Part shown: piece by piece, positions 4,484 to 46,057 of the stretch
Layout: every line of letters begins with the position of its first letter
Numbering within the stretch: the stretch's first letter is position 1
Assembly (NCBI GenBank): GCA_038045145.1
Contig: JBBSYQ010000006.1
Location: 1-46,057, forward strand
DNA: 46,057 nucleotides
Source of the DNA: Nanobdellota archaeon
GTDB taxonomy: Archaea > Nanobdellota > Nanobdellia > Pacearchaeales > GW2011-AR1
Direction: 5' to 3'
Translations under genes and position numbers: made by a program
Notes under the pieces: model-generated
What the model saw: only the letters and a program-made list of their open reading frames with translations
What the model was told of the DNA's origin: nothing
The model's database searches: none

Positions 4484-4668
4484 ATTTCTTCTCCTGCTTG
4501 CATTTCAAGTCCGCTTATGATTGGAGCATAACTCTGGCACATTGTTGCATCTCTTTTATCATACTCATTTCCTGGAATAAATCCTTTGTCACATTTTCTT
4601 CTCGTTTCACATGTGTCTCTATAACTGCATTCTCCTAATTCTCGTTTTTCAGTTCCGTACTTGTTCAT
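4480..4668 (-). CDS. hypothetical 62-aa Cys-containing protein
   Basis: ATGA overlaps at both ends, with uL4 (4665-4668) and the exonuclease (4480-4483). Four Cys residues (C14, C20, C26, C44). Support comes only from translational-coupling geometry. Confidence 0.45.
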   Translation of the reverse strand: MNKYGTEKRELGECSYRDTCETRRKCDKGFIPGNEYDKRDATMCQSYAPIISGLEMQAGEEI

Positions 4669-5462
4669 TTTAATTTCTCCGCGAGATTTTTAATTGCATT
4701 TTCAGTGTAAACAACAAGTCTTCCCAGCCCGCCTTTAGCCAAATCATTCACGCCGAGATTTCCCGCATTTGCAACGTCAAAAATTTTCGTTTTCATTTTT
4801 TCATTTTTTCCTGTTACAATAAGCACTCCCGCGCTTTTTTTGTATCTTCTTCCTCTTGATTTTCCCTTTCCGCTTCTTATTTTTTTGTTTCTCTCTGAAA
4901 TTTCAGACAAGTTGCCGAGAATTTTTTTCACGCTCTCAATAAGTTGTTTTGTTCCTAATTCCGTTATTCCCGATTCAACTATAAACGGCAGCGATTTTAT
5001 TTCAGTATCTTTTAATCGCGCATATTTTTTTCTTATCATCTTCTCGTTTGCCGTCGCGCTTAGCGCAGATTTAAGCGCGGTTTCCATTTCTTTTTTGTTA
5101 ATTCTCTTTTTTTCAAGCATTGAAGAAATTTTCGGCGGATGTGCCCTCATTCCGCCTCTTGCAAAAGGAACTTCTGCCGCTTCCCAGTTAAACTGGCTTC
5201 CTTTTTGCGAAAATATTTTTCTCGGAACTCTTGAACTTCCTCTTCCGTAGCCGCTTCTCCATACATGCCTTGCATGGCTTAGTTTTCCTTTTGCAGAATG
5301 CTGTTTCCCTGCAACGGGAGAAGGCGAATATGGTTGTCTCCTTTTTTTCGTCTCAAGAACTTTTGCAACAATGTCCTCGCGGATTTTCTCTGAGAAAAAT
5401 TTCGGCAACTCAATGCTTCCTTTTTCCTTTCCGTCGATGCCGAAGATTTTTGTCTTTGTCAT
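4665..5462 (-). CDS. rpl4: 50S ribosomal protein uL4
   Basis: GRGSSRVPR, FARGGMRAHPPK and SGKGKSRGRRYK are archaeal L4 (L1e) hallmarks. Position between uL3 and uL23. Confidence 0.95.
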   Translation of the reverse strand: MTKTKIFGIDGKEKGSIELPKFFSEKIREDIVAKVLETKKRRQPYSPSPVAGKQHSAKGKLSHARHVWRSGYGRGSSRVPRKIFSQKGSQFNWEAAEVPFARGGMRAHPPKISSMLEKKRINKKEMETALKSALSATANEKMIRKKYARLKDTEIKSLPFIVESGITELGTKQLIESVKKILGNLSEISERNKKIRSGKGKSRGRRYKKSAGVLIVTGKNEKMKTKIFDVANAGNLGVNDLAKGGLGRLVVYTENAIKNLAEKLK

Positions 5463-5653
5463 ACTTTTACCTCAAGTCTCACCGACTTTAATGAATCATT
5501 TTCTTTAATCATATTTCTTATTTGCGCTTCATATTTACGAACCATTGTCAAAAATAAATCCTGGTTGGTTGACGGCTCTTCTTTGCCTTTTTCATAAAGC
5601 AGGTAACTTATGCCTTCTCTTTTAACCCTTGCGACAAATTCATAGTCTTTCAT
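5459..5653 (-). CDS. hypothetical 64-aa protein between uL3 and uL4
   Basis: ATGA overlaps with the uL3 stop (5650-5653) and the uL4 start (5459-5462). No family recognised. Confidence 0.5.
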   Translation of the reverse strand: MKDYEFVARVKREGISYLLYEKGKEEPSTNQDLFLTMVRKYEAQIRNMIKENDSLKSVRLEVKV

Positions 5654-6594
5654 CTCAACTCCACAAGTTCATAATTTTTCTTTACTTGTCTTCTCGTTTC
5701 CCTCAAAGGTTGGGTTGCAATAAGTTGCCTTTTCGCCGCTCCTTGCACGCTTCCGTTGACAATTATATAATCCGTTTTTATGTTTCCGTAATTTTTTATT
5801 CCCGTTATTTTTCCGTCGGCTTTTTTCACGCCGATTATTTTTCCGTTATAAATTGCTCTTGTGAACATTCCAAGCTGTCCTGCCATCGGCGTTCTGAAAG
5901 TTACTCTTGCAGGATGCCATGGTCCCAAGCTTCCAGGTCTTCTGACACCTTTCTCCGACTTGTGGCTTTTTAGTGTTATCCCGAATCTTTTTACAGGACC
6001 TTGAAGTCCTTTTCCTTTCGTGAGTCCGCGAAGGTCAATTAAATTTCCCTTTGCGAAAACATTTTCCACAGGAATTTCCTTGTTAAAATTTTCTTTGACA
6101 AAATTGAGTTTCTCCTCGACACTTCCTCTTAATCCTATTTCCGCAATGTCGGGAGTTTTTTTTATTCCTGTTTTTTTAACTTGCGAATAAGCAATGACTC
6201 TCACGTCGTCGTAATCTTTGACGTCTTCAATTTTCTTTTTGCTCTTCGGCAGTTTTAATTTTCTCTTCAGTTCCTTGTCAAGATTTTCAGCAATGACTTC
6301 ATTGGCAACTTTTCCGTTTTTGTAAAATCTTGCGGAGAAAATTTTTAACGGCGGGCATTCAAGAAGTGTTACAGGAATTATCGTAGTTCTTCCCTTTGTC
6401 ATCGAATCCGGCGTGTTGTCCTTGACATAAGCTGACTTCATTCCTACTTTGTAGCATATAAATCCCTTCAAACCAATCAAATTAGAATTATTAGGATTAA
6501 TTGCATTCCAGTTCACTCTAGGCAAGAATTTACTGGCTCTTTTCCTCGGCCAGAACTGCAGACTTCCTTTCCTTGGTGTTCTCTTCGTAGGCAT
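5650..6594 (-). CDS. rpl3: 50S ribosomal protein uL3
   Basis: MPTKRTPRKGSLQFWPRKRA is the canonical archaeal L3 N-terminus, found at ATG 6594. The track start at 6702 adds 36 implausible residues. FRTPMAGQLGMF and WHPARV motifs are present. The stop codon is TGA. Confidence 0.95.
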   Translation of the reverse strand: MPTKRTPRKGSLQFWPRKRASKFLPRVNWNAINPNNSNLIGLKGFICYKVGMKSAYVKDNTPDSMTKGRTTIIPVTLLECPPLKIFSARFYKNGKVANEVIAENLDKELKRKLKLPKSKKKIEDVKDYDDVRVIAYSQVKKTGIKKTPDIAEIGLRGSVEEKLNFVKENFNKEIPVENVFAKGNLIDLRGLTKGKGLQGPVKRFGITLKSHKSEKGVRRPGSLGPWHPARVTFRTPMAGQLGMFTRAIYNGKIIGVKKADGKITGIKNYGNIKTDYIIVNGSVQGAAKRQLIATQPLRETRRQVKKNYELVELR

Positions 6595-28622: not shown

Positions 28623-30629
28623 ATGAAAACAAAATTATTGAGTTCATTCCTTACAGGCATATTTTTACTGATTTTGCTAATGACAAGTGTTAGTGCTGCG
28701 CTTGTTTTAACTGATGTCGGAGGTCCCTATACTTCTAATCATGATAGTTCTGTTACGGTTACTTTTAATTTAACTCATACAGGAACAATTATGGACCCTC
28801 AGACCGGACTTGATTGGTCTACAAGTAACCCCCCTAGCATTGGTTCTTGGACAACTCTTCCAACCTTAGCAACAATCGGCACGGCAGACGGAGATGTAGC
28901 TCTTTCAGCTGTATTAAGCGTGCCAAAAAGTTCTTCAGGAACAATAAATGCTAATATTAATGTAGTAAGTGATACTGGTGCTTCCGCTACTTTACCAATA
29001 ACAATCACAATAAACAACACACCAGAACTTCTTGTTTCTTCTTCAACAATGTTGCAATCTTCAAACTTAACAACATTCACCGTTACAAACGACGGAAACA
29101 CGCCTCTTTCAAACATTGTTCTTACCCCAACAGGCGACTTTAATGTTACACTTTCTTCTTCAACAATTGCTACATTAACAGCAGGTGCAAATCCCTCAAA
29201 CATCACTGCTACAAGAACAACTGCATTAAGTTCTTTGGCAAAGGGAACAAATACTGTAACAATTAATGCGACGGCATCAGACGGCACAACCTCAACAGGA
29301 ACAATCACCCTTGAAAATTCATTCTGCAGCGACGGCGAAGTAAATGCAACTGACTTGATATTAAGCGTTGACTTGGCAAACGACGGCGAAGGAAAAGAAG
29401 ACGAATGGTTGCTTCTCGACACAATAAAAGTTGACGCTGAACTCAAAAATGATAAAGACGGCGTTGATTTAAGCGATGTTGTCTTTGAACTGGGATTATT
29501 CAAGGAAGGCTCAAAAACAAATATAGCATCAGACATGATTTGGATTAGCGAAGATAGTGAAGTATTTAATTTTGGAGATGTTGATGAAGGAAAAAAAGGC
29601 AAGCATACTTTTGAATTCAGGGTTAGTCCTGAAGGAATAGACTCCGGAAACTATCTGTTAATGATTAAGGCTTATGAAGACGGAAAAGAAGACGAGCTTT
29701 GCACAGGCGAATCAGATGATTTTGATAGTTTCAGCACAAAAAATTATTATTATGAAATTGAAGTAAAGCAGGAAACAAGCAAGAACAAAATGGTTGTTAT
29801 TGATGAAAGTCTTTTATCAACTCCGATAGACGCGTTGTGCGGCGAACAAACAACCCTCAACTTTGATGTCTGGAACATAGGAGACACAGATTTCGCAGAC
29901 CAGTTTCTTGTTAATCTTATCAACACAGAACTCGGACTTAATTTAAATACAACTTATGTCGGAGATTTGGATGCAGGAGAAACCGCAAGTCTTTCATTCG
30001 TGCTTGATATTCCAAATGACGCTGAAGCAAAAAGCATCCCTTACACACTGGTAATGCAGACATTCTACGAATACGACGCAGACGGAGGAAAATATGAAAC
30101 TTATTACGACAGAAAATCAGAAAATACCTTCGACGCTTTGTTAAAAGTCGGCGGAAACTGCATCGTTAAAGGCGAAGCAACATTTGAAACCGATAAAACA
30201 GATATTGTTTCGGGCGGAAAAGCAGGAGAGCCATTGACTGTCAAGACAACAATCAAAAACTCAGGAACAAAGACAGCCGACTACATTATAAATACGGCAA
30301 ATTATACTGCATGGGCGTCTTCGGCAAACATAGACACAAAGACATTCACGCTAACCGCGGGCGAGTCAAAGGAAATTACAATAACTCTTGATGTAAAGAA
30401 AGGAATTTCAGGAGAGCAAACTTTCAATGTTGAAGTTGTTTCGGGAAATGAAATTGTAATGACTCAGCCGGTTTCAGCTTTAATCGAGGGAAGCAGCGGA
30501 TTGTTTGAAGGAATTACAGGCAGTTCAATTCTCGGCGGAGGAAGCAGTTACCTATGGATAATCGGATTTGTGAATGTAATACTAATTGGTTCAATAATTG
30601 TAGTTGCAGTAAGATTATTAAGGAGATAA
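28623..30629 (+). CDS. large cell-surface protein with CARDB-like domains and C-terminal TM + RLLRR anchor
   Basis: Signal peptide, many N-x-S/T sequons, and CARDB-like segments (LNFDVWNIGDTDFADQFLVNL...LDAGETASLSFVLDIP; LTVKTTIKNSGTKTADY...LTAGESKEITITLDV). The C-terminus is GGGSSYLWIIGFVNVILIGSIIVVAVRLLRR. Confidence 0.7.
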   Translation: MKTKLLSSFLTGIFLLILLMTSVSAALVLTDVGGPYTSNHDSSVTVTFNLTHTGTIMDPQTGLDWSTSNPPSIGSWTTLPTLATIGTADGDVALSAVLSVPKSSSGTINANINVVSDTGASATLPITITINNTPELLVSSSTMLQSSNLTTFTVTNDGNTPLSNIVLTPTGDFNVTLSSSTIATLTAGANPSNITATRTTALSSLAKGTNTVTINATASDGTTSTGTITLENSFCSDGEVNATDLILSVDLANDGEGKEDEWLLLDTIKVDAELKNDKDGVDLSDVVFELGLFKEGSKTNIASDMIWISEDSEVFNFGDVDEGKKGKHTFEFRVSPEGIDSGNYLLMIKAYEDGKEDELCTGESDDFDSFSTKNYYYEIEVKQETSKNKMVVIDESLLSTPIDALCGEQTTLNFDVWNIGDTDFADQFLVNLINTELGLNLNTTYVGDLDAGETASLSFVLDIPNDAEAKSIPYTLVMQTFYEYDADGGKYETYYDRKSENTFDALLKVGGNCIVKGEATFETDKTDIVSGGKAGEPLTVKTTIKNSGTKTADYIINTANYTAWASSANIDTKTFTLTAGESKEITITLDVKKGISGEQTFNVEVVSGNEIVMTQPVSALIEGSSGLFEGITGSSILGGGSSYLWIIGFVNVILIGSIIVVAVRLLRR

Positions 30630-31858: not shown

Positions 31859-31915
31859 TTTACATACGGCATAAATATTGAATAACTATTTAAATAGATT
31901 TTCATTTAATCGTTG

Positions 31916-32473
31916 ATGAAAAATAAAAACAAATTTCTCGGTATTTTTTTGAGATACGCGATTCTTGTCCTCGCGGCAATTCCAAATCTCTGGATTTTCT
32001 ATTTTATTTTTACTCCCCTGACTGTTTATCCTGTCTTTTTCCTGATAAAAATTTTCTTTGACGCATTTTTGATGGATAACATCATAGTTGTGAATAATGA
32101 AGTCCCTATAGAAATAATAAAAGCCTGCATAGCGGGCTCTGCATATTATCTGTTGCTGATTCTTAACCTTTCAACGCCGAATATGAAATTTAAAAAAAGA
32201 ATAAATCTTATTTTAATTTCTTTTGCTTTGCTTTTAACAATAAATGTTTTTAGAATTTTGGCTTTGAGCGTGATATTTCTAGAGGGATTTTCTTGGTTTA
32301 TTCTGACTCATAAATTTTTCTGGTATTTCATGAGCACTATTTTCGTCGCAGGAATCTGGTTTGCCGAAGTAAAATATTTCAAAATAAAAGATTACCCGCT
32401 GTATTCTGATTTGAAATTTCTATACAATAAATCATTAATAAAATTAAGCAGGAAAAATCTTAAATTATCCTGA
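31916..32473 (+). CDS. short exosortase/archaeosortase-family membrane protein
   Basis: Polytopic. It has Cys (IIKACIAGS), Arg 42 residues later (INVFRILAL) and His (LTHKFFWY), in the order and spacing of the sortase catalytic residues. The ATG at 31916 is 20 nt after TATA ATTTAAATA. The track start at 31913 is TTG. Confidence 0.55.
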   Translation: MKNKNKFLGIFLRYAILVLAAIPNLWIFYFIFTPLTVYPVFFLIKIFFDAFLMDNIIVVNNEVPIEIIKACIAGSAYYLLLILNLSTPNMKFKKRINLILISFALLLTINVFRILALSVIFLEGFSWFILTHKFFWYFMSTIFVAGIWFAEVKYFKIKDYPLYSDLKFLYNKSLIKLSRKNLKLS

Positions 32474-32603: not shown

Positions 32604-33230
32604 ATGGCATTTGAGCTTATCTCACAATTGGCCTCATATCTCTTAATGCTGATTCAAAAAGGGAGTTATTTTGGAATTTTTCTAGGCATGGCTGTTGAAA
32701 GTTCTTTTGTTCCCTTCCCGAGTGAAATAATCCTCATTCCGGCGGGGATTTTGGTTGCAGCAGGCAAGATGAATTTTCTTTACGTCTTTATCGCAGGATT
32801 GCTTGGAAGTCTCTTCGGGGCTTTTATAAATTATTTCCTGGCGTTGTTTCTGGGAAGAACGGTTGTTGATTTGCTTATTGAAAAATACGGGAAATTTTTA
32901 TTCTTAACCAAAAAAAATTTGAACAAATCAGACGAATATTTCAAGAAATACGGGGAAATAACAACGTTCATTGGAAGACTAATTCCCGGAGTAAGGCAGT
33001 TGATTTCTCTGCCTGCAGGATTTTCAAAAATGAACTTTCCTAAATTTGTTTTTTTCACAGGGTTAGGCGCAGGAATATGGACATTAACATTGATTTATGT
33101 GGGTTATTTTTTCAGGAATAATTATAATTTAATAAGCAGGGAAATTAATCTTGTTATAATTTTAATTGTCGTTGCAATCTTGATTGTTTATTTTTTGATG
33201 AGAAAAAGAAGAAATAAAACTCACGGATAA
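32604..33230 (+). CDS. DedA-family (VTT domain) membrane protein
   Basis: VESSFVPFPSEIILIPAG and GRLIPGVRQLISLPAG are DedA signatures. Confidence 0.88.
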   Translation: MAFELISQLASYLLMLIQKGSYFGIFLGMAVESSFVPFPSEIILIPAGILVAAGKMNFLYVFIAGLLGSLFGAFINYFLALFLGRTVVDLLIEKYGKFLFLTKKNLNKSDEYFKKYGEITTFIGRLIPGVRQLISLPAGFSKMNFPKFVFFTGLGAGIWTLTLIYVGYFFRNNYNLISREINLVIILIVVAILIVYFLMRKRRNKTHG

Positions 33231-33925
33231 ACTTCTTTGATTTTTGCAAAACTTTCTGTCATAAATTTCTCGGTAACTTTTAGAACTTCACAATTATTAA
33301 CATTGAGATTGTAGCATGAGACTCCTGTTTGCTCGATTGAACTTTCATTTGATTCCCGTATCTGCAGAAACATATATCTTCCGCTCTCGTCGCATGTTGC
33401 GTTTGAATCTTTAATTACATTAACCCCGAATATTCCGATTTTTGCAAGATTTGCAATTGCAATCACCCCGTAACCTTGGCAGTTTAAATCTCCGGTTGCA
33501 TTTATTACCATGTCTTTTTTAAGATTAATTTCGCCGTTAAATGATACATCTTCCAATTTTCTTGGGTCATTTCTAAGATAAATATTGTATGGTATCTTTC
33601 GTCCGTCATACATCACAGGGAAGGAAGTTTGATAGAGAATTAAATCTCCTTCTTTGACAATTTTATATTCAACGCCTTTGTATTCAAAATTAGTTGCGCT
33701 TTTAACAAATAAATAACCGACAAAAATCAAAATAATCAAAACCCCAATTATTATAAAAATATTCCGCAGAATTTTATTCTCTTCTTTTCCCTGATTTTTC
33801 GTTTCTGTTTTTTCTTCTTCCTCGCCAACGGCTTTTACTATTTTTTCTCCGCCGTCTTTCTCAACTTCAAAAAATTCCGTAACTTCTTCTTTTGTTTCCT
33901 TTTTTGATTTTCTCTTTATTGCCAT
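33221..33925 (-). CDS. single-pass membrane protein with extracellular domain
   Basis: Charged K/E N-terminus, one TM (IFIIIGVLIILIFVGYLFV) and a ~150-aa Cys-containing ectodomain. Confidence 0.55.
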   Translation of the reverse strand: MAIKRKSKKETKEEVTEFFEVEKDGGEKIVKAVGEEEEKTETKNQGKEENKILRNIFIIIGVLIILIFVGYLFVKSATNFEYKGVEYKIVKEGDLILYQTSFPVMYDGRKIPYNIYLRNDPRKLEDVSFNGEINLKKDMVINATGDLNCQGYGVIAIANLAKIGIFGVNVIKDSNATCDESGRYMFLQIRESNESSIEQTGVSCYNLNVNNCEVLKVTEKFMTESFAKIKEVYP

Positions 33926-33956: not shown

Positions 33957-34532
33957 TTATTGTCTTACATCAAGGATATTAAATAAAAATTCATCGGCTA
34001 CCTTAATCAGTTCTTCTCCACTGCCTTCTAAAAAAATGCAGTTCATATCGCGTGTTATTCTTTCTTCCTCACTTTCTTTTATTATAATAAAATTCTCATC
34101 GCATTTTTTTACAGGCAAATTGCCGCTGCAGTTAGAATTTTCAGGACATGCATTTTCAATGCCGGCAACAAACTGGAACATGTTCGCTCTTATTTCAGAT
34201 TCAGCTTCGGCACTCTCGGAATAAACATATAGCATTTTATTTTCGTAATCAATTAATTTTCCTGAAAAATAAATTGCACTAACTTCTTTGGGGTTGTTTT
34301 TAAAAATGAAATTAATTTCATTTTTGTTCAAAAGCCAGAAATCTCCCTGCTTTGTAAATTCAAATCCATTATAATTTATTTTGTCTGTGCTTTCCGCGTT
34401 TTCCCCCACATTTCCCTGAAAAGAATATCCGAGAACGCTAAATAACATTATAAAAACCAGAATCATCCCGAGGAATATTTGATTCCTCCTGTTTTTTCTT
34501 GCATCTTCAGCTTTTGATGTTAGTTTTCGCAT
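33957..34532 (-). CDS. single-pass membrane protein with extracellular domain
   Basis: Basic N-terminus, one TM (IFLGMILVFIMLFSVLGY) and a Cys-containing ectodomain. Same architecture as the neighbouring gene. Confidence 0.55.
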   Translation of the reverse strand: MRKLTSKAEDARKNRRNQIFLGMILVFIMLFSVLGYSFQGNVGENAESTDKINYNGFEFTKQGDFWLLNKNEINFIFKNNPKEVSAIYFSGKLIDYENKMLYVYSESAEAESEIRANMFQFVAGIENACPENSNCSGNLPVKKCDENFIIIKESEEERITRDMNCIFLEGSGEELIKVADEFLFNILDVRQ

Positions 34533-34692: not shown

Positions 34693-37470
34693 TTAAGCTG
34701 ATGAATTTGTTGTTTCTGTTACAAGCGTAGCGCTTGTCGCAGAAGTTCCTTTATACTTTGTTCCACCGTCTGTTGTTACAGCCTGTGTTCTTAAGTATTT
34801 TGCAGCATTTACAGTGTCATCTCTTTCGTAACCCGCAACAAGCAATGCAATCTTGCCTGTAGTGTACTTGTCAGCAAAGCTTTGTATCAGGAATTGTCCT
34901 GAACCAACGCCTGTCTGCTCTGTAAAGTCAGCACTACAATAAGCTCCTCCTAAAAGTGTAGCAGCAGCGCTGTTAATACAGCTTCCGCCAATAACAATTA
35001 AGTTCTTTGTGCTTACTGATGCAACTTCAGAGTCTGTTACAAGAACATCTCCAAGTGCAGTTACGCCTGCTGAACCAGTTGTTCCTGCAGTTACAGTCGC
35101 ATCGTTTTTAGCAACATACAATTGCGCATACACTTGTTCATCAGGATAACTTAATGTAGCAAGTGGTTGGTCTGAATCTCCAGAGTCAAGTGTCAATATG
35201 CTTCCCCACAAATCAGCAGCTTCTGTTACTTTGCTGTTACTTGATAGAGAAGTTCTCCATAGTGATGAAACATTGCTCCATGTATCTCCAGAACCTGTAG
35301 TATCTACTCCTAGTCCATCATCTCCAGTTCTACCTGTTTCAAGCAAAATGATGTTTGCATGGTATACGCTGTTATCGTCTTTTTCTTCCCATACAATCAA
35401 TGCTGATTGGTTAATCAAACCTCCTGTAACTGGGTCTGCAAGATAAATCATTGCTGGTTGACCTGCTGGCTCGCTTGTTGATGTTCCACCATTAGTCAAA
35501 TTATGGTTCGTAAATACAAATTTAAGTCCGCCTACGCTCCAGTTAAGCGTGTTGTTTTCCATAGTAGTGGCGTGATAACCGCTCGTATTAAGGTATCCAG
35601 TAGCTCCATCACGAGTTATGTTCCACATAGAGTTGTACTCTGCTATACTTCCAGGTGAAGTTTGAACTACTGTAGCACTTTCATATCCATCTCCGTCTGG
35701 AATTTTGATTTCTGTGATGTTGTATTGAATTACATTTCCAGCCCTTATTCCAGTGCTATTGAATAGCAATTCTGTTGGTTGATAAAATGCAACCTTTGCT
35801 CCTTTTGATGTTTGTATCGTTGGGAACAAAACTACAACTCCGTTTCCACTGCTATCTGGATAATCCAAATGAACTTGGTAGCTTTCTGAGGAAATGCCCG
35901 CAGCGCCATCTAAATAAACGCCGTAAGTTTTTCCACCTATTATAACGCTTCCAACTCCATCAGATGTCCAAATAGTTTTTGGAAGAGTTTCTCCTGACAT
36001 CACATCTGTGAATTCAACTTCATCGCCCGCAGTGTTACTTGAAATGTCTGATGAATCGTTCTTGGCATTTGCTAGTTTTAACAAATAACCTTCGTCTTCA
36101 TTTCCTACAACAACATAACTTTGACGAGTGATATTGCCCATTTCAGCTACTGTAAGATTTCTGTTGTCATCATCAATCATTAATTGAGGACCGCCTGTTA
36201 CACCCGGTCTAACATTCCCTACAATATCTTTAGTCCATTGGAATTCTTTTTCATTGCCTCTATATTCTTTGAATTTTACATTCATCTTATCATCACTGTT
36301 TGCAGTTATGGTAATGGCTTCTCTTGCTGTTGAATCTCTTGCGATATTCAATCCAGCAAAATTTACCTTGAATGTTCCGTAGAGAGGGTCAACAAAAGAT
36401 TCCCCTGCTTTGATAGCATCCATATCTGATTCTGGCGCATACACGCTTATAGTCAATGAACTCAAATTATTTGGGTTTCCAGTTTCAAAGTCAACTAATG
36501 TTCCATCAATGCTGGAATCGTCTTCTCCTGTTTTAACAGCACTGTTATCTTCCAGAGTTACTTTATCACTTCCGGCTACAATTGTTGCAGATAATTTTAA
36601 GTTTGTTTCATCTGCAGTTGTTACCGCAATTGTGATTCCGTTAATTTTCTTTGAAGCAGCTTCGTTAATTTCCTTACTATCGCTTTTTCCCGTACTATCT
36701 GTAACCCTTACACTTGCAGCACTGTCTGAAGCAGAAATTAATTCAATAGTATATGTTGCTCCTGCGACAGTTACTTCTGCTGTTGGTGCATCACTGCTTA
36801 AATCTAATTTTTTAGCACTTTTCAAGAGTACAATTGTATTAGTGTCAGTTGAAGAACTTATAGTAAAATCCATTCCAAATAACTTTATGTTTTGACCTTC
36901 TGAATCAGCATGGCTAAAGTTTACAGCTTTGCTAAATGTAGCAGTTGTGTTATATATGTAATTAGCTTGTGTCGTACTTGTTGTTAAAGCGTAGTTTGGG
37001 TCATCAGAAGTTGCAGGTTGCCTTTTAAAGGTAATTCTTGGATTTGAACCAATGTCAATTATTTGAGTCATTGAAGCATCTACATTTCCTGAAAAAGAAT
37101 CGTCCATTAATACAGTTGGGAGATTAGCTTTTGTTAATACGTTTGTTACTGTGTTCAAACTGTCATTAACATAAATCTTTGTTCCGCCTGTAAATAAAGC
37201 AGCAGCTTCTCCTGAAACACTTCCTCCAGTTGTTCCTGATGTTGTGCTCATATATGTCTGCAAGTTACCTTGTATGTTTCCTGCTTCAACAGCATCTAAT
37301 ATAGATACCCCTGAACCAGTTCCATATACAACAGCTACGCTTGCAACTCCTCCGGACACGAATGGTGCCGGATAGGTTGCAGCAGCAGCAACGCCTGCAG
37401 TCATACCAACCATCAATGCACTTGCTCCTATTGCTGATATTTTCTTAAAACTCTTTTTTAAATTAAACAT
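34693..37470 (-). CDS. candidate S-layer / major surface glycoprotein (925 aa)
   Basis: Signal peptide ...GVAAAATYP. Thr/Ser/Gly/Asn-rich with many N-x-S/T sequons and no TM anchor. Strong GGAGGT Shine-Dalgarno 8 nt upstream of the ATG (reverse complement of acctcc at 37485-37490). Visibly less AT-rich than its neighbours. Confidence 0.65.
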   Translation of the reverse strand: MFNLKKSFKKISAIGASALMVGMTAGVAAAATYPAPFVSGGVASVAVVYGTGSGVSILDAVEAGNIQGNLQTYMSTTSGTTGGSVSGEAAALFTGGTKIYVNDSLNTVTNVLTKANLPTVLMDDSFSGNVDASMTQIIDIGSNPRITFKRQPATSDDPNYALTTSTTQANYIYNTTATFSKAVNFSHADSEGQNIKLFGMDFTISSSTDTNTIVLLKSAKKLDLSSDAPTAEVTVAGATYTIELISASDSAASVRVTDSTGKSDSKEINEAASKKINGITIAVTTADETNLKLSATIVAGSDKVTLEDNSAVKTGEDDSSIDGTLVDFETGNPNNLSSLTISVYAPESDMDAIKAGESFVDPLYGTFKVNFAGLNIARDSTAREAITITANSDDKMNVKFKEYRGNEKEFQWTKDIVGNVRPGVTGGPQLMIDDDNRNLTVAEMGNITRQSYVVVGNEDEGYLLKLANAKNDSSDISSNTAGDEVEFTDVMSGETLPKTIWTSDGVGSVIIGGKTYGVYLDGAAGISSESYQVHLDYPDSSGNGVVVLFPTIQTSKGAKVAFYQPTELLFNSTGIRAGNVIQYNITEIKIPDGDGYESATVVQTSPGSIAEYNSMWNITRDGATGYLNTSGYHATTMENNTLNWSVGGLKFVFTNHNLTNGGTSTSEPAGQPAMIYLADPVTGGLINQSALIVWEEKDDNSVYHANIILLETGRTGDDGLGVDTTGSGDTWSNVSSLWRTSLSSNSKVTEAADLWGSILTLDSGDSDQPLATLSYPDEQVYAQLYVAKNDATVTAGTTGSAGVTALGDVLVTDSEVASVSTKNLIVIGGSCINSAAATLLGGAYCSADFTEQTGVGSGQFLIQSFADKYTTGKIALLVAGYERDDTVNAAKYLRTQAVTTDGGTKYKGTSATSATLVTETTNSSA

Positions 37471-37870: not shown

Positions 37871-38257
37871 ATGTTTTTAAGAATAAGTTGGGTATTTGAC
37901 ATGACAACGAGGACAAAAACAAGGGAAATTACAGTCACAGAATCTCAAGGCGCTTTTTCAATATTCAGGAAGGCGGTGTTTTCAAAAGAAGATTATGATT
38001 TCTCCGGAATACTTGCGTTAAGGCAACTTTTAAGCAATGAAAAGGCACGGATTCTCCATACAATAAAGACTCAAAAACCCGGCTCTATTTATCAACTGGC
38101 AAAGATTCTAAAACGCGGATTTAAGTCTGTGAACGATGATATAAAACTCCTTGAAAGATTTGGTTTCATTGAACTAACTGAAGAGAGGACAAAAAACAGA
38201 ATAAGGCATCGCCCAGAGGTTGTAGTGGATAACCTTACAATAAATGTAAAGTTGTAG
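37871..38257 (+). CDS. winged-helix transcriptional regulator
   Basis: LSNEKARILHTIKTQKPGSIYQLAKILKRGFKSVNDDIKLLERFGFIEL has a wHTH pattern. It lies tail-to-tail (convergent) with the pilin-like cluster, 3 nt away (38257/38261). The start could instead be ATG 37901. Confidence 0.6.
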   Translation: MFLRISWVFDMTTRTKTREITVTESQGAFSIFRKAVFSKEDYDFSGILALRQLLSNEKARILHTIKTQKPGSIYQLAKILKRGFKSVNDDIKLLERFGFIELTEERTKNRIRHRPEVVVDNLTINVKL

Positions 38258-38260
38258 TGT

Positions 38261-38749
38261 CTAATTAGATTCGTAATAAGCCGTGAAAGTTATATCAAAA
38301 GATTCTCCTCCTTTGAAGAAAGGTTGTGTTGCACCCTTTAAATTCGTTGTTCTTTCTCCTTCTATTAGATTCATTATCTCCCCTGAACTCGAGCTTATCA
38401 ATAATTCATAACCTTTTACAGGTCTATCGCTCCCTGTTTTCCAGCTTTCCCCAACAATATTTGTAAGAGTTCCTCTTAACACCTCGCACGTGTCTCTTTC
38501 ATCAACACAGATTATATTTTCATTGCATGCAAAAATAAGCTCTTGTATTTCCATATTTCCAAAATTATCAGAACAATCAGATGTATATTGCAAAAACGAT
38601 TGTATAAAACTTTCAACCTCATAACTTTCAACAGGTTCTTTCTGCCCTGTTCGCAGGGAAAAACTCAAGAACACGAGCAAAATCACAGCCACGACTATTA
38701 TAATCAGCGCAAATCCAACCATCTCCTCTTGGGCTTTTTTGTTTTTCAT
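38261..38749 (-). CDS. type IV pilin-like protein (class III signal peptide)
   Basis: The N-terminus MKNKKAQEEMVGFALIIIVVAVILLVF is a short basic leader, then A/Q, then a hydrophobic helix. Cys-containing globular domain. Confidence 0.5.
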   Translation of the reverse strand: MKNKKAQEEMVGFALIIIVVAVILLVFLSFSLRTGQKEPVESYEVESFIQSFLQYTSDCSDNFGNMEIQELIFACNENIICVDERDTCEVLRGTLTNIVGESWKTGSDRPVKGYELLISSSSGEIMNLIEGERTTNLKGATQPFFKGGESFDITFTAYYESN

Positions 38750-38774
38750 TTACTTTTTAACTTTTTTAACAATT

Positions 38775-39266
38775 TTAATCATATCCTGCTGTAAGCAATG
38801 CAATCTCGCATTTGTCATAAACTTTCCCCTCCATGTTTGCTTTTCTGCACAAAGACACGAAGTTTGAATGTCCTGCATTTATATTTGAAATTTTTATTAT
38901 GCTGCAATCAGGATAATTTTCTTGATTGCATTCTGTTCCATCTGAAATTGGATATATTTTTCTTATTTCAATTCCTGAAACTCCCCAGAAATCTGAATAA
39001 TCATTTATGTGATTTTTTAATGCCATTACTTTGTCCGCGTCAATGCAATTTATTTTGCTTCCGAAGGATTCGCCGCACGAAAATTCCGGCGAGTTCGCGA
39101 GTTTCATGACAAGCAAGAGCGCGTTTCTTTCTTCTAAAATTCCTGCAGACTCCCTTAACTGCGCCAAAAAAAATGTCAGAACAAACATTCCGACGAGAAC
39201 AAAAAAAAGCGTGATTGCCATCAGCATAAAAGCCATTTGCTGTATTTTTATTTGCCCGTTCTTCAT
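38775..39266 (-). CDS. type IV pilin-like protein (class III signal peptide)
   Basis: From ATG 39266: MKNG|QIKIQQMAFMLMAITLFFVLVGMFV. That start is 1 nt after the GNAT stop. The alternative start at 39284 would overlap the GNAT gene. Confidence 0.55.
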   Translation of the reverse strand: MKNGQIKIQQMAFMLMAITLFFVLVGMFVLTFFLAQLRESAGILEERNALLLVMKLANSPEFSCGESFGSKINCIDADKVMALKNHINDYSDFWGVSGIEIRKIYPISDGTECNQENYPDCSIIKISNINAGHSNFVSLCRKANMEGKVYDKCEIALLTAGYD

Positions 39267-39267
39267 T

Positions 39268-39708
39268 TTATTTTTGCATTTCATAGTGCGTTATTTTAAA
39301 ACCAAATTTATTGTATAATTTTATTGCTTTTTTATTCTTTACATTTACATTCAATCTAAATTTCTTAACGCCTTTGTTTTTTGCAACTTTAATAAATTTT
39401 TTTATTAATTCTTTGGCAATACCCTTTTTTCTAAATTCTTTTTTAATAAACAAATCATCGACATAGCCTGTTTTTTGAAAAGTATCTGTAAGCAATATCC
39501 AAATTAAATACCCTGTAATTATCCTGTTTTCTTCTGAAACCAACATAAATCTTCTTTGATTCTTGAAAATAAAATCAAATTCTTTTTTTATCTTTTTATT
39601 ATTTATGGGAATTTTTTGTAAAGATATTTTAGAATATTCTCTCAAACTTTTTCTGTTTAACTCCAGATACTGCTCAAAATCTTCTTTTTTTGCTATTCTT
39701 ATTTTCAT
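39268..39708 (-). CDS. GNAT-family N-acetyltransferase
   Basis: The acetyl-CoA binding region is YVDDLFIKKEFRKKGIAKELIKKFIKVAKNKG (Q/R-x-x-G-x-G/A-like). The C-terminus ends ...AIKLYNKFGF. Confidence 0.85.
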   Translation of the reverse strand: MKIRIAKKEDFEQYLELNRKSLREYSKISLQKIPINNKKIKKEFDFIFKNQRRFMLVSEENRIITGYLIWILLTDTFQKTGYVDDLFIKKEFRKKGIAKELIKKFIKVAKNKGVKKFRLNVNVKNKKAIKLYNKFGFKITHYEMQK

Positions 39709-39717
39709 TATTTCATT

Positions 39718-40635
39718 TTACCATAATTTGCATTCGGCAAATCCGTTTTTTTCCTTTAGATTTTCAAGATTATTAATCATCTGATTCAGACTTGCGGAAT
39801 TTTCAAAAGATTCTTCCGAGCTTGTCAACGAACTTAATTCTGGAATTAAATTTGAACTGCATCCTGCTTGAGATACTATTTGTGCTTTGTCTTCATAAAT
39901 AAGGGCAAGTTCCTTGCCTCTTTGCATCAGTCTCTTCAATTGACATTCATAAGTTTCCTTGTCAGAGAAAATTGTGGCATACATCAAAGAGTCTCCGTAA
40001 TATTTTGTTAAATTTTCATCTTTTTCAACGATGTAATTGTTCTCATCAACATTAACATCGCAGTTTCCTCCATTAAAACACACTTCAATTGAATCTGCGG
40101 GGCAATTTGTGAAGAAAATATTTTCAAGATTCAAGTTTGAAATTTCTTCTTTTACTCTGTCCGGCGCGTCGGCAAAACAATAATTGTCGTTTGAGGAAAT
40201 CAAATAAATGACATCCGCGACTTTGAATGGAAATTCAAACGGCTTTGAAAAAAGGAAGAATTTTTTTCCCTCGCTGTAATTCCCTGAAAAGATATTTTTG
40301 TTTTCAAGCCGGATGTTAACGTCGGTATCTGTCCATTTGTTAAAGCTTTTTTGCGAGATTCTTATTGTTTGTCCGCCAAAAACACCTTCATTATCGCATC
40401 TGTTATAAATTCTTGTTTCCGACGGCAGAATCAATGTTGTTTTTTTTCCAGTCTCAAAACCCGTTTCAAGCGGATTTAACAACACGCCTATTTCTTTGGC
40501 GGTTTGCGCATCAACCGCCGTCTGTTCTGTATTGATAATTTTTGTCGTCGCAAAAATAGCAAGAAATAAGATGAACGCGCCAACTATGATTGCAAAAAGC
40601 CATGCAAAGGAAATTTGTAACTGCCCTCTTTTCAT
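39718..40635 (-). CDS. type IV pilin-like protein (class III signal peptide), 305 aa
   Basis: MKRG|QLQISFAWLFAIIVGAFILFLAIF carries the euryarchaeal-type prepilin motif (K/R)G-Q-x-S. Multi-Cys ectodomain. 4-nt overlap with the upstream pilin-like gene. Confidence 0.65.
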   Translation of the reverse strand: MKRGQLQISFAWLFAIIVGAFILFLAIFATTKIINTEQTAVDAQTAKEIGVLLNPLETGFETGKKTTLILPSETRIYNRCDNEGVFGGQTIRISQKSFNKWTDTDVNIRLENKNIFSGNYSEGKKFFLFSKPFEFPFKVADVIYLISSNDNYCFADAPDRVKEEISNLNLENIFFTNCPADSIEVCFNGGNCDVNVDENNYIVEKDENLTKYYGDSLMYATIFSDKETYECQLKRLMQRGKELALIYEDKAQIVSQAGCSSNLIPELSSLTSSEESFENSASLNQMINNLENLKEKNGFAECKLW

Positions 40636-41138
40636 GTTCTTTCAAGTTTTACAAGTGCCTCCCCAAAATCTTTTTTAATTATCAGATTTATTCTGCCGTT
40701 TGCATTTTCAAAACAATAAGGATTTTCATTTTGCACCATTGAATCAATGTCAATATTATTTATTTTATTTGAATCATCTCCTTCGCCGGAACCGACGGGA
40801 TAAAAGAACATATTTTCTTCTCCATAATAAACAAGTTCAAGTTCATCGTAAAAATTTCTGTTGTTTCCTCTTGCTCCGTCGTTGATTTCATAATCCGCAA
40901 AACATACGTATTTTATTTTCGTCGGAAGAAAATATTCTTTTTCCTGGCTTCCTTTGGAGCTCTGCCATATTCTGTCAATGTCTGATTGCAAATCATTTTT
41001 GAATTTTCCGATTTGTGCAGAGTTTTGCCAGCTAAGAAATTTTTGTATGGCGTAAAATGCAAAGATTATAAAAATAATTATCAGGATAATGGAAAAAATC
41101 ATGCCAAAAGATAAGTTCAACTGCCCCCTTTTTGTCAT
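40632..41138 (-). CDS. type IV pilin-like protein (class III signal peptide)
   Basis: MTKRG|QLNLSFGMIFSIILIIIFIIFAF. A minus-strand TATA (reverse complement of 41161-41170) lies about 23 nt upstream of the ATG. Confidence 0.65.
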   Translation of the reverse strand: MTKRGQLNLSFGMIFSIILIIIFIIFAFYAIQKFLSWQNSAQIGKFKNDLQSDIDRIWQSSKGSQEKEYFLPTKIKYVCFADYEINDGARGNNRNFYDELELVYYGEENMFFYPVGSGEGDDSNKINNIDIDSMVQNENPYCFENANGRINLIIKKDFGEALVKLERT

Positions 41139-41189
41139 TGATTAAAAAGAAGTTTCTAACTTATAAAATTTGCTATGGAATTAAACACG

Positions 41190-41252: not shown

Positions 41253-41930
41253 ATGAAGAAAGATGAATTGAAAAAAGCCATATTAAAAGAATTAAGAAAT
41301 CCTAAGCTTTACACAGAAAACATAATAAATTATCTTGAAGAAAATCTGGACGATGCTTTTAATGTTTGTTGTCGTAAAAATCTTTCCATAAATGAAAAAT
41401 ATCCAGATTCAAAATATAAAGGGCAATTAGGACAAAAAACAGTTTTTCTAACTGTAAGAATGTTTGATTTATGGGAAAATGCGATTATTGACACTATTTC
41501 AGAACATCTAAAAAAGAAATTTCCAGAAATAAAAGTTATTCCAATTAACGACCCTATTGGAGATATGGGAATAGTTTTTCCAGATGGAGAAATTATGAGG
41601 TGGGAAATTAAATCAAGTCAAGCATTAAATTCCTTTACGGGTGCTACCCATTCAGCTTCAAAATGTGATAATTACATTTTGATAAATTATGCTATTAATA
41701 GAGATTTGAAATTAAGCGAAGATAAAAATAAAGGATTTATTACAGAATTGGCGGTTTTTGTTTGGGATGATATGGAAGCAAAATGGCTCGGAGAACATAG
41801 CGAACATAGTAGTTTTACATCATTGAAAATTCCCGCTGAAATAAAATCAAGTCGTCCAGAAATCATTGTTATTGGAAAATTAGAGCCAAAAACTAAATGG
41901 TCCAATATAGTCAGAAAAAAATTATTTTGA
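41253..41930 (+). CDS. putative type II restriction endonuclease (PD-(D/E)xK)
   Basis: The candidate catalytic core PIGDMGIVFPDGEIMRWEIKSS gives D...E-x-K. It is convergent with the methyltransferase gene and overlaps it by 9 nt. Confidence 0.5.
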   Translation: MKKDELKKAILKELRNPKLYTENIINYLEENLDDAFNVCCRKNLSINEKYPDSKYKGQLGQKTVFLTVRMFDLWENAIIDTISEHLKKKFPEIKVIPINDPIGDMGIVFPDGEIMRWEIKSSQALNSFTGATHSASKCDNYILINYAINRDLKLSEDKNKGFITELAVFVWDDMEAKWLGEHSEHSSFTSLKIPAEIKSSRPEIIVIGKLEPKTKWSNIVRKKLF

Positions 41931-42827
41931 AAATTCGTTAAGGTTTTTATTTGGGAAAGATTGTTTCAATCTTTTTTCTATTAAGTCTATGTATTTCTGA
42001 TTAACATCAAAACCGATATATTTTCTTTTCATTTTTAACGAAACTTCTGCAACAGTTCCGCCCCCCATAAATGGGTCAAGAATTATATCTCCCTCATCAG
42101 TAAGCCATTTTATAAAAAATTCTGGTAATTGTGGATGAAATGGTGCTGGATGTTCCAACCCTCTTAATGCTGAACCCGTATCAAATCTAAAAACCGTTAT
42201 TGGTTTTTTTCCTAATGGATGTGGTTTACTGCTTCCTCTTTGAGAAAGTTCCGTTGTTCCATCTGCTCTTACAATATCATTACCATGAACTTTATTTTTA
42301 AATCTCTTTAATGAAACCTCTGCATAAGGTTCTCTTATTCTGTCCGTATATGTCTTGAAATTTTTGCTATCTTTTACAAAATGGAAAATATATTCCACTC
42401 TATCATTCAACCTTTTTTCTCCCGTCATAGGCAAAGCTGATTTTTTGAACCAAATATATCTATCAAACAATTTTAATCCTGTTTCTTTAACTATTCTATG
42501 AACCAACTCAAAAACATAAGTGCTTCTTTCTCCGTTTGTAGCTCTATCATTTATGTTAAGTATAAATGAACCAGTTGGTTTTAAAAATCTCTGGGCTTCC
42601 TTAAACAATTCTAAGAACCAATTAACATATTCTTCAGGATTAAAAACTTCAACAAATTTTCCATAAGAAACTGTATCTGCATAAGGCGGAGAAGTAACAA
42701 CTAAATCAATGTAATTATCTGGAAGTTTTTTAGACAATTCCATGCAATCTCCAAGATAAGTTTTATTTAATTCAATCTCATTAATTTTATCCGCCATTCT
42801 TTTATACTTTTTCTTATAATCTTTCAT
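41922..42827 (-). CDS. beta-class N4-cytosine/N6-adenine DNA methyltransferase
   Basis: Motif IV is VVTSPPYAD near the N-terminus and motif I is LDPFMGGGTVAEV near the C-terminus, which is the beta-class order. SPPY favours N4-cytosine. ATGA overlap with the transposase stop (42824-42827). Confidence 0.88.
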   Translation of the reverse strand: MKDYKKKYKRMADKINEIELNKTYLGDCMELSKKLPDNYIDLVVTSPPYADTVSYGKFVEVFNPEEYVNWFLELFKEAQRFLKPTGSFILNINDRATNGERSTYVFELVHRIVKETGLKLFDRYIWFKKSALPMTGEKRLNDRVEYIFHFVKDSKNFKTYTDRIREPYAEVSLKRFKNKVHGNDIVRADGTTELSQRGSSKPHPLGKKPITVFRFDTGSALRGLEHPAPFHPQLPEFFIKWLTDEGDIILDPFMGGGTVAEVSLKMKRKYIGFDVNQKYIDLIEKRLKQSFPNKNLNEFSK

Positions 42828-43744
42828 TTTAAATTATTTGTGTTTGAAAGTTTAATCAAGTCAAGCCATTTGTTATTGCCAAGTTTTAATTCAGGAATGG
42901 CTAATTTGTAAGGTTCACATCCTATGGCTTGATGTGAACGAATAAAATTATAGTAGATTGAAAGTCCTTTCATAATAGCGTTTCTCGCTTCTATTGAATT
43001 ATGAACGCCTCTGAAAGTTTTTGTCCTTGCTCTTATGTTGCTGTGCATTCTTTCAACTTTATGATTGAAGCCCTCATTTTTTAACTGCGTAACTCTGTTA
43101 TGCAATACATTATGTTTTCCTAATTTATTATTGTAGCCGAAAACCGATTTAACGACTTTCAAATATGCAAAAAATCCGTCTGTCGTGCATATTTTTATTT
43201 GCTCATCAGTTTTTTCTTTGGCTTTCCCAATAACTTTTTTTATTTCATTTCCGCTTCTTGATTTGCAGAAATTAGAAGCAACCATAAAACGAGTTTCAGT
43301 ATCAATAGCGTCAATAAACCAAGAATGATTTTTCTTTCCCTTTCTTCCATATTCCATCTCATCAACCTGCATTTCTTCACCGCAGTTTATTTTTAGATTA
43401 TCAGTGAAGCCATAAATCATTTTAGAATATTTTAAAATCCATTTATAAATTGAAACATTAGAGCTGTTGTGCGGATAGAAAGCCTGCAAATGCTCCTGAA
43501 CTTTTCTCGTTGAAATTCCTCTATAAAATAAATCCAAACATAAAGTTACTTTTTGCGGAGCATTTTTCATTTTCCAAAATCCTAAATCTTCAACAAACCT
43601 TTTTCCACATTCTTGACAGCCGTATCTCTGTATTAATCCTCTGTTCTGTGTTCTTCGCTGTCCTCTTTTTATTATCTTCTCTGAATTGCATTTAGGACAT
43701 TTCAATACTTTTTTATATTCTATGTTGTTGTTTGTTTGCTCCAT
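42824..43744 (-). CDS. DDE transposase, IS6-like, with N-terminal zinc ribbon
   Basis: CPKCNS...CQECGKRF zinc ribbon. The DDE triad context is QVDEM..., ICTTDGFFAY and NHKVERMHSNIRARTK. The C-terminus YYNFIRSHQAIG is typical of IS6-type enzymes. Confidence 0.8.
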   Translation of the reverse strand: MEQTNNNIEYKKVLKCPKCNSEKIIKRGQRRTQNRGLIQRYGCQECGKRFVEDLGFWKMKNAPQKVTLCLDLFYRGISTRKVQEHLQAFYPHNSSNVSIYKWILKYSKMIYGFTDNLKINCGEEMQVDEMEYGRKGKKNHSWFIDAIDTETRFMVASNFCKSRSGNEIKKVIGKAKEKTDEQIKICTTDGFFAYLKVVKSVFGYNNKLGKHNVLHNRVTQLKNEGFNHKVERMHSNIRARTKTFRGVHNSIEARNAIMKGLSIYYNFIRSHQAIGCEPYKLAIPELKLGNNKWLDLIKLSNTNNLK

Positions 43745-44930: not shown

Positions 44931-46057
44931 TTATTGTTTGTTGCCGAATGCTCTTATTACTATGCTGCACTTATTTGGCGCCGGCTGATTTCCATACACA
45001 TCCTTGCACTTTATGTAAAAGTCCGACGATGTTTTCCAGTCTGTGAAATGATTTATTTTGTTTATCGCAGTCATTTTTATTCCGTCTTCTAAAGGATAAG
45101 AACAGTCAACATCATCATAAACACACGATGCCTCTTCATTTGTGATTATCTTTAGGTATCTTTCTTCTTTGTAAGTCCTCACAACAATCGGCGATTCGGT
45201 GTCTGATTCAACATCAAAGTTTATTGTTTTTGAATCCGCGTTTCCGCCGAGGTCAATGCATTTTATGTAATAAATGTAGGATAAATCTCCAAGCAGCCAT
45301 AAATCCTGCGAGTGCTGGTATGAATTTGTGTTGAAGAATGCAACATAATCTTTGTCTTCTCCGGTTTCACTGAAGTAGCATACTGATTTTCCCTCGTCAT
45401 AACCCGCAGATGTTTTTGCGTTTAAAGTTACCTTTACAGTATTTGTTGAATCTTTTACTGTAATATTATTTGGAGATGCAGAATCAATTACCAACGGCTG
45501 TGTTCCCTTAAGGATTAATTTATAAGATTCTTCATTGACATTTCTGTCGCTTGCCTGCTGCGCATTTGGCTGGTCTTTGCATCTGAAATAAAACTCGTTG
45601 TCAAATCTGTCTTTCAGTCCTGTAAGCGTCGCGGAACATGAGTAAAGCATTCTCGCGTTCATTTCAATTGTTCTTAATGAGCATGTCATTGTTTCTTCCA
45701 TTTTGTCGTAACTCTGGTCGCGATGACTCCACTTGCATTCCGCAGGCTCGTTGACAAATAACTGCATATCTACTGAACTCTGATTGTAAGCAATAGGCAT
45801 TTCATTAGGTATGCTCGTCGAATCTATTAAAGGAGGAGTTGTATCAGGACCTTGTTGAACGCAGAATCTGAACACGAAGTTTGCAACATTTGCGTTGCCG
45901 CTTGCATCCCTGCATCTTACGAACAATCCAACTTGTCCGTCGCCAGGCATTTCAATTCCTTCTGATTCAAGATTTTTAGGTCCGGGCAGAGACATTGTTT
46001 GAGTATGGTTGTATATTGATAAAGTAGTTCCCCCGAAGAAATAACTCATGTTCTCAT
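44931..46057 (-). CDS. large extracellular repeat-domain protein, 5' end beyond window
   Basis: At least four ~100-aa repeats each end in a [FY]-x-[FIV]-[RK]-C-x-D-x-x-G-N motif (LFVRCRDASGN, FYFRCKDQPN, YYIKCIDLGGN, FYIKCKDVYGN). The frame stays open to the window edge. Confidence 0.7.
   Translation of the reverse strand, partial: ENMSYFFGGTTLSIYNHTQTMSLPGPKNLESEGIEMPGDGQVGLFVRCRDASGNANVANFVFRFCVQQGPDTTPPLIDSTSIPNEMPIAYNQSSVDMQLFVNEPAECKWSHRDQSYDKMEETMTCSLRTIEMNARMLYSCSATLTGLKDRFDNEFYFRCKDQPNAQQASDRNVNEESYKLILKGTQPLVIDSASPNNITVKDSTNTVKVTLNAKTSAGYDEGKSVCYFSETGEDKDYVAFFNTNSYQHSQDLWLLGDLSYIYYIKCIDLGGNADSKTINFDVESDTESPIVVRTYKEERYLKIITNEEASCVYDDVDCSYPLEDGIKMTAINKINHFTDWKTSSDFYIKCKDVYGNQPAPNKCSIVIRAFGNKQ

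Follow-up and report, generated by a model that had tools for sequence, protein, structure and literature searches.

What do four neighbouring genes of a Pacearchaeota-type DPANN archaeon, a tiny and probably symbiotic organism, encode, given that each begins with a short basic leader and a hydrophobic helix? The genes lie on contig JBBSYQ010000006.1 (Nanobdellota archaeon, GCA_038045145.1), a complete contig of 46,057 bp that we refer to as the window. A preliminary description, made from the sequence alone, presented them as genes resembling those for type IV pilins, with an embedded GNAT acetyltransferase and an adjacent winged helix-turn-helix (wHTH) regulator. We call them A, B, C and D and conclude that their products are probably lineage-specific class III-signal proteins that make up a minor-pilin-like, disulfide-bonded set of a type IV filament or an envelope complex. 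This reading is carried by the N-termini, where a motif pattern far beyond chance has been retained by the orthologs of about 80 species.

A conserved operon of four genes

All four genes are encoded on the minus strand, and neighbouring genes in the operon overlap or abut. Gene A (40632-41138, 168 aa) starts with the leader MTKRG, followed by QLNLSFGMIFSIILIIIF, and has two invariant Cys. Gene B (39718-40635, 305 aa) overlaps A by 4 nt and carries the leader MKRG, then QLQISFAWLFAIIVG, and eight invariant Cys. The longest open reading frame (ORF) of gene C (38775-39284, 169 aa) starts at 39284, which is 18 nt upstream of the MKNG start at the seventh codon (M7 at 39266, giving 163 aa); MKNG is followed by QIKIQQMAFMLMAITLFF, and six Cys are invariant. 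Gene D (38261-38749, 162 aa) encodes MKNKKA, then QEEMVGFALIIIVVAVILL, and four conserved Cys. Four ORFs with a basic leader, G/A-Q and a hydrophobic helix had been placed at these positions, and that placement is correct. The Cys counts given with them agree for A (2), D (4) and C (7, of which one lies in the dispensable leader and six are conserved); B has 8 and not 9.

The window encodes archaeal ribosomal proteins, FtsZ and aIF5A at a GC content of about 35%, and homologs of its genes were drawn from metagenome-assembled genomes (MAGs) that carry the labels Pacearchaeota, Woesearchaeota or Nanoarchaeota. With one genome scanned for each GTDB species, a relative of B turned up in 209 genomes. 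We compared 86 loci, which comprise the window, 80 of these 209 genomes and five metagenome loci; their ORFs were called and clustered by BLAST, and many of the loci are cut by contig ends. A, B, C, D and the wHTH gene are syntenic across this set, with A present in 76/86 loci, C in 82/86, D in 79/86 and the wHTH gene in 73/86. The four genes are thus a conserved core operon of Pacearchaeota-type DPANN archaea and not peculiar to the contig studied here.

Database searches returned 1165 matches for B (55-65% identity) and 908 for A (53-83% identity); none of these relatives carries a Pfam domain or is named informatively, and all proteins of the locus are annotated as hypothetical. A profile of family A collected 1116 representatives of 50%-identity clusters at E<=1e-3. 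Each of A-D occurs as a single copy in a fixed order. Identity between lineages is 50-65%, which equals that of the adjacent housekeeping membrane proteins and is higher than that of an S-layer-like protein encoded nearby.

A prepilin-type site in five protein families

Archaeal class III signal peptidases such as PibD, FlaK and EppA need a small residue at -1 after K/R, as formalized in the FlaFind pattern. In the window, A, B and D have a basic leader that ends in [KR]-[G/A/S] and is followed by about 20 hydrophobic residues. A six-frame scan of the window for [KRN][GAS] combined with a hydrophobic stretch close to an N-terminus recovers these three; C falls narrowly under the hydrophobicity cut-off, and the remaining hits are internal segments or Sec-type signals. 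The 19 residues behind the site have a mean Kyte-Doolittle value of 2.7-3.4 in A-D.

Site logos were built from alignments of each family anchored on the G/A of the window (about 41-82 sequences each, with some 75-80 species per family); over 72-82 sequences per family, K/R at -2 and G/A(/S) at -1 hardly vary. They cover A-D and a fifth prepilin-like family of about 260 aa, f10, which is encoded further upstream in relatives (for example at 626-1390 and 4932-5705 of locus L004 and 4619-5401 of locus L083) and lies off the present contig. Writing the predicted cut as a slash, the motif K-[KR]-[GA(S)]/Q is near-invariant overall in the five families, except for position +1 of B. Family A has K at -3, R/K at -2 and G/A (64/67) or S (3/67) at -1, with Q at +1 in 59/66 sequences and then M-K-L-S-F-G-M-I-F-S-I-I. 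Family B has K at -3, K/R at -2 and G/A at -1 (76/82), followed by Y/F/A and then L-Q-I-S-F-A-W-L-F-A-I-I-V-G. In family C, K at -3, K/R at -2 and A/G at -1 (75/77) precede a Q in 77/77 and L-K-I-Q-Q-M-A-F; the window protein has N at -2, whereas its orthologs have K/R. Family D combines K at -3, K/R at -2 and A/G/S at -1 (76/76) with Q-E-E (76/76) and M-V-G-F. Finally, f10 has K/R at -3, R/K at -2 and G at -1 before an invariant Q and V-T-I-F-I-I-I, giving the N-terminal signature [KR]G/QVTIFIII.

Q at +1 had been put forward as an EppA-type trait of all four proteins. This stands for C and D, as it does for f10, and for about 90% of A; B departs from it, with Q in just 4/82 orthologs and Y, F or A as the usual residue. 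The rest of the EppA-type motif QxSxE[FY] differs.

The helix behind the site is the best-conserved part of each of the four proteins. Over the first 25 residues after the site, the majority residue has a frequency of 0.78-0.84 in A-D, compared with 0.57-0.68 in the rest of the proteins. The preliminary description had allowed that the N-termini might prove to be ordinary signal anchors. Two such anchors are encoded in the same locus and served as controls: gene E (33957-34532, minus strand), whose 191-aa product is an ordinary signal-anchored, Cys-containing protein, and gene F (33221-33925, minus strand), whose 234-aa product is likewise an ordinary signal-anchored protein and has a charged cytoplasmic tail of about 55 residues. 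Both have long basic N-tails without G/A-Q, and their membrane segments are conserved no better than the remainder (0.57 vs 0.59 in E and 0.44 vs 0.59 in F). Because site and helix are conserved together in A-D and not in E and F, this comparative evidence supports the assignment of the A-D N-termini as class III, that is prepilin-type, signals, as first described from the single contig.

Heads and predicted structures

The invariant Cys are even-numbered in every family (two in A, eight in B, six in C and four in D). One homolog of A (P0184, 271 aa) consists of the A module (residues 1-165) fused to a C-terminal Cupredoxin_1 domain (Pfam, 6e-12). The even Cys numbers and this fusion together indicate that the C-terminal heads are extracellular and disulfide-bonded, and the fusion suggests that the A module can display functional domains.

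AlphaFold2 predicts A with a pLDDT of 92.5 as a helix (residues 11-59) followed by a small beta-rich head. B (pLDDT 86.6) is modelled as a helix (10-53), then a beta domain and finally a helical domain at the C-terminus. The two models thus share an N-terminal helix of 44-49 residues and a beta-rich head. The four proteins had been called unrelated to each other by eye, which holds only in part, since A is distantly homologous to B (hhalign 95% over 173 columns) and B can be regarded as a distant paralog with an extra C-terminal helical domain. D and f10 are also distantly homologous (hhalign 90%). For three pairs among the five families that share the site, hhalign detects no similarity past the N-terminal helix. 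That one site recurs in five families, with no further similarity detected in three of the pairs, is what a common processing site would leave behind.

At 168 aa, and with its long helix, small head and single conserved disulfide, A is built like a major pilin. It could be argued that a long adhesive pilus has one or more of A-D as its major subunit, all the more as ultrasmall cells from groundwater have been seen to bear pili-like appendages and the attachment of Pacearchaeota to hosts is strong (PMC7906910). We regard this as very improbable. Major pilins usually show tandem duplications or hypervariable heads, and neither was found among A-D in the 86 loci; single copies in a fixed order with 50-65% identity, and the failure to find linked machinery, also speak against it. 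The identity level fits a complex of fixed stoichiometry better than a fast-evolving major pilin.

Relation to known pilins and assembly machinery

Several searches count against the pilin-like reading of A-D. None of the window proteins reached a pilin or class III family of Pfam or NCBIfam, including Pilin_N (PF07790), Class_IIIsignal (PF04021/DUF361) and the NCBIfam archaeal flagellin and pilin models. When 60 members of family A were compared with PF04021, a single one responded (E=0.063), and members of D and f10 matched none of the curated pilin N-terminal Pfam families. Member-by-member Pfam scans of A, D and f10 returned single-pass transmembrane noise, with matches to DUF7248 and DUF7287 at E values of at least 0.001. 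The listed matches of the family A profile in a representative library are all close relatives and provide no bridge to known pilins. The pilin likeness suggested at the outset did not extend to known folds either: Foldseek comparison of the A and B models with the PDB gave no pilin or archaellin and nothing significant (best E 0.5-0.7), and profile searches of PDB sequences were negative, the best pilin being PilE1 at E=1.2.

The machinery is likewise missing from the neighbourhood. Pfam annotation of the contigs, combined with a Walker-A/GxGD motif scan of 1340 ORFs from the 86 loci, revealed no secretion ATPase of the PilB/FlaI type, no TadC/FlaJ-type platform protein and no A24 peptidase within 10 kb. 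For the window itself, protein scans bear out the earlier statement that it encodes no ATPase, platform protein or peptidase; among A-D and their neighbours, Pfam and NCBIfam recognize only the GNAT, the wHTH regulator, DedA, PAP2, a methylase and a transposase. Linkage of archaeal pilins to ATPase and platform genes is frequent and not obligatory. The literature search found no statement specific to pilus genes of Pacearchaeota.

These negative results lend themselves to another explanation, in which A-D are uncleaved type II signal anchors. They would belong to an envelope or S-layer-anchoring complex that is confined to Pacearchaeota and has no relation to type IV filaments, and K-K-G/A-Q would be a membrane-proximal interaction or topology motif. 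The constant linkage to S-layer-like and other envelope genes, with none to pilus machinery, would suit such a complex, as would the lack of any sequence or fold likeness to known pilins and a degree of conservation that is unusually high for exposed pilus subunits. It leaves unexplained why a small -1 residue after K/R and a Q at +1 are kept across five families in the manner of a processing site, and why the true anchors E and F have neither the motif nor the extra conservation of the helix. We consider it unlikely, though it is the main competitor, and prefer to view A-D as class III-signal proteins.

The described systems that come closest include the Epd pili (archaeal type IV filament system 1) of Methanococcus maripaludis, with the minor pilins EpdA-C, the peptidase EppA and DUF361 proteins. 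In both, a short basic leader closes with K/R-G/A and precedes a Gln at +1 and a hydrophobic helix, and a single constitutive operon holds several distinct genes for pilin-like proteins. Unlike Epd, A-D do not match PF04021 and replace QxSxE[FY] by QMKLSF, [YF]LQISF, QLKIQQ and QEEMVGF. Their locus is also without the ATPase, the twin platform genes and the peptidase, and their heads are unrelated to known pilins.

The organisation of the operon resembles that of the bacterial minor pilin sets FimU-PilVWX with PilY1 and GspH-I-J-K. In each case four different pilin-like proteins are encoded in a fixed row, are more conserved than a major pilin would be and are accompanied by very large secreted proteins. 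The analogy is one of organisation and of a proposed priming or tip role; no homology of sequence or structure was detected, and A-D carry an archaeal class III signal without the Glu at +5 or the G/F-T-L-I-E motif of bacteria.

Two further archaeal systems share individual features. ArlF and ArlG (FlaF/FlaG), which bind the S-layer (PMC4425475), are monotopic proteins with a pilin-like helix and a beta-rich extracellular domain, and A-D also lie near an S-layer gene. They differ in that A-D match neither archaellin nor FlaF/G, have no archaellum genes nearby and possess a conserved cleavage-type motif. The sugar-binding proteins of the Sulfolobus bindosome, which build no long pili, combine prepilin-type N-termini with a functional extracellular domain, and the fusion of A to a cupredoxin fits such modular use; in contrast to them, A-D have heads that are small or of unknown fold and contain no substrate-binding-protein domains.

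Proposed assembly

We infer cleavage, assembly and function of A-D as follows. Each protein would be inserted with its N-terminus inside and its C-terminus outside. A class III signal peptidase encoded elsewhere would then cut after [KR]-[G/A] and expose the Gln, allowing the conserved hydrophobic helices to pack together while the disulfide-bonded heads remain outside the membrane. A-D, probably together with f10 and with large Cys-rich proteins encoded immediately upstream of A on its strand in relatives (the BIG family), would form a defined minor-pilin-like heteromer that may act as the tip, the primer or a short pseudopilus of a type IV filament. Alternatively, they may form a filament-derived envelope structure at or through the S-layer, for which a role in attachment is plausible. 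Filament formation, host attachment and EppA-type processing are plausible hypotheses.

Published work offers a setting for this scheme. Type IV filament systems, including Epd-like system 1, have been reported in DPANN archaea (bioRxiv 10.64898/2026.04.22.720090). Archaeal pilus loci are often accompanied by S-layer-like proteins, and some nanoarchaeal ATPases have no known cognate pilins (PMC4858521).

The acetyltransferase gene

The gene between B and C (39268-39708, minus strand) encodes a generic GNAT acetyltransferase of cytoplasmic type (146 aa; Acetyltransf_1, PF00583, 3.2e-18). Like the wHTH regulator (6.1e-16), it is a real gene by Pfam, as had been described. The spacers of 9 nt to B and 1 nt to C, the latter with C starting at M7, are also as described and indicate that the GNAT is co-transcribed with its neighbours. 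Its nearest solved relatives are diamine acetyltransferases (1.9e-10), followed by N-alpha-acetyltransferases (Ard1, about 3e-6). It scores 59.5 bits against the RimI model TIGR01575 and does not reach the cut-off of 86.4. The subfamily is small, with 9 database matches.

The arrangement of a GNAT within the pilin-like operon is not conserved. It is found in 6/86 loci and at differing junctions: the GNAT separates B from C in the window, L014 and L045, and C from D in L024, L028 and L043. A further metagenome contig (L091/L092) has it between A and B. The gene has a GC content of 22.4%, compared with 33-37% in its neighbours. A status as conserved core gene was rejected on these grounds. Membership in a classical toxin-antitoxin pair was considered as well and rejected, as there is no antitoxin-like partner beside the GNAT in the window.

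Pairs of a wHTH-nucleotidyltransferase and a HEPN-like protein, which resemble toxin-antitoxin systems, occur between A and B in about nine species (L028:9065-9990, L033, L038, L041, L042, L061, L063, L065 and L076, the last with the pair upstream of A). MNT/HEPN pairs are also found among the large genes upstream. The operon junctions therefore serve as hot spots of insertion. We conclude that the GNAT is probably a facultative, horizontally acquired passenger at a permissive insertion site and not a core component.

Modification of the pilins by the acetyltransferase had been mentioned as a speculative role. A dedicated enzyme of this kind might, for example, N-alpha-acetylate the N-terminus that cleavage frees on the cytoplasmic side, and would be a functional part of the system. 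Co-transcription across such short spacers would favour this role, and so would the recurrence of one small subfamily at three junctions in different lineages and the weak similarity to archaeal Ard1 and to N-alpha-acetyltransferases of the RimI type. In addition, a DPANN MAG (GCA_964543395.1, locus L089) encodes a canonical PilA-type pilin (4858-5328; leader MINKRGLEDKKG, followed after the site by VSAIVATLIIVLLVIVAAG) two genes upstream of a 60%-identical GNAT homolog. Against this role stand the absence of the GNAT from 80/86 loci, its varying position, its low GC content and a sequence that diverges more than those of its neighbours. The junctions also receive other insertions, some GNAT homologs occur in unrelated gene contexts, and the best solved relatives acetylate diamines or polyamines. 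A modifying function is thus improbable, and the passenger interpretation is retained.

The surrounding cell-surface locus

The A-D operon is part of a more extensive conserved locus of cell-surface genes. Relatives usually show the order PCNA, f10, BIG, in some cases a second f10, BIG, BIG, A, B, C and D, followed by the convergent wHTH gene, the gene for the S-layer-like protein, E and F. Beyond F come DedA or a different membrane protein, then a multi-pass membrane protein of unknown kind and PAP2.

The wHTH regulator (37871-38257, plus strand) belongs to the HVO_A0114 family (PF25212), with a score of 58.4 bits that exceeds the gathering threshold of 27.6 (E 6.1e-16), and its orthologs are annotated likewise. 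Similarity to Lrs14-type regulators is weak (E=0.002) and far under the cut-off. The gene is convergent with D, with the stop codons 3 nt apart, and stands tail-to-tail with D in 73/86 loci; at 74-76% identity it is the best-conserved gene of the neighbourhood and is a candidate for a conserved regulator of the locus. Its orthologs have 115-119 aa, and the true start is probably M11 at 37901.

The S-layer-like secreted protein (34693-37470, minus strand, 925 aa) has a Sec signal and is syntenic in 64/86 loci. Its last ~170 residues are conserved (47-63% identity) and the remainder is variable (27-56%), as would be expected if an exposed lattice protein retained a conserved module for anchoring. 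One ortholog shows a weak match to the Pfam family S_layer_C. E and F, two adjacent paralogs that always follow this gene, have homologous ectodomains with four Cys (hhalign 94%).

At the other end, the contig cuts through a member of the BIG family, of which the 3' part is present (44931-46049, minus strand; a 372-aa ORF). This family of large Cys-rich secreted proteins (family 0) has 127 members in 68 loci and no Pfam domain. In relatives the genes lie directly upstream of A, usually in two or three paralogous copies, and encode proteins of about 500-1270 aa (for example L004:1390-9461 and L083:5403-9517); f10 is conserved upstream of them. One subgroup has a Sec signal followed by the motif YCCEKT..GAWCQN. 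Another has a KRG-A-hydrophobic N-terminus that may be prepilin-like too.

In the window, an insertion (41253-43744) separates BIG from A. Alongside an N6/N4 DNA methylase and a DDE (IS240-like) transposase, it encodes an unknown protein of 225 aa that may be a restriction enzyme. Each of these genes is a singleton in the set of 86 loci, and their GC content is low (29-32%). A TATA-like element, TTTTATAA, at 41161-41168, 23-30 nt upstream of the ATG of A, may now drive the expression of A-D.

Two other proteins were noted further along. In 47 loci, the DedA and PAP2 genes flank the gene for a conserved multi-pass membrane protein of 186 aa (31913-32473, plus strand) without a Pfam family; it was considered as an archaeosortase, an assignment that was rejected as it finds no support in Pfam. 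A 668-aa surface protein with CARDB domains (28623-30629, plus strand) has a C-terminal transmembrane segment and a basic tail and is conserved (family f11).

Implications for Pacearchaeota

Pacearchaeota are abundant, uncultured and metabolically minimal archaea. To our knowledge, no attachment machinery has been assigned to them so far, and according to size-fractionation data they are unusually firmly attached to their hosts (PMC7906910). At least 209 species-level genomes contain the locus, which offers concrete, lineage-wide candidates: five prepilin-like families, giant Cys-rich proteins, an S-layer protein and a dedicated regulator.

We speculate that the whole locus, from f10 and the two or three giant Cys-rich proteins through A-D and the wHTH gene to the S-layer protein, E and F, encodes an undescribed, Pacearchaeota-wide attachment apparatus. 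The five new prepilin-like families would form a short stalk or tip, derived from a type IV filament, that exposes the giant proteins to the host across the S-layer. They might then be the pilins that nanoarchaeal-type secretion ATPases are lacking, or their assembly might need no dedicated motor encoded nearby. This proposal is tentative, and we hold it to be doubtful as it stands; if it is true, the locus would be of greater interest. No new principle is implied, and most likely the locus represents a further diversification of the type IV filament toolkit, in which archaeal prepilin-like proteins reach well past the families that Pfam, arCOG or MacSyFinder-style models recognize.

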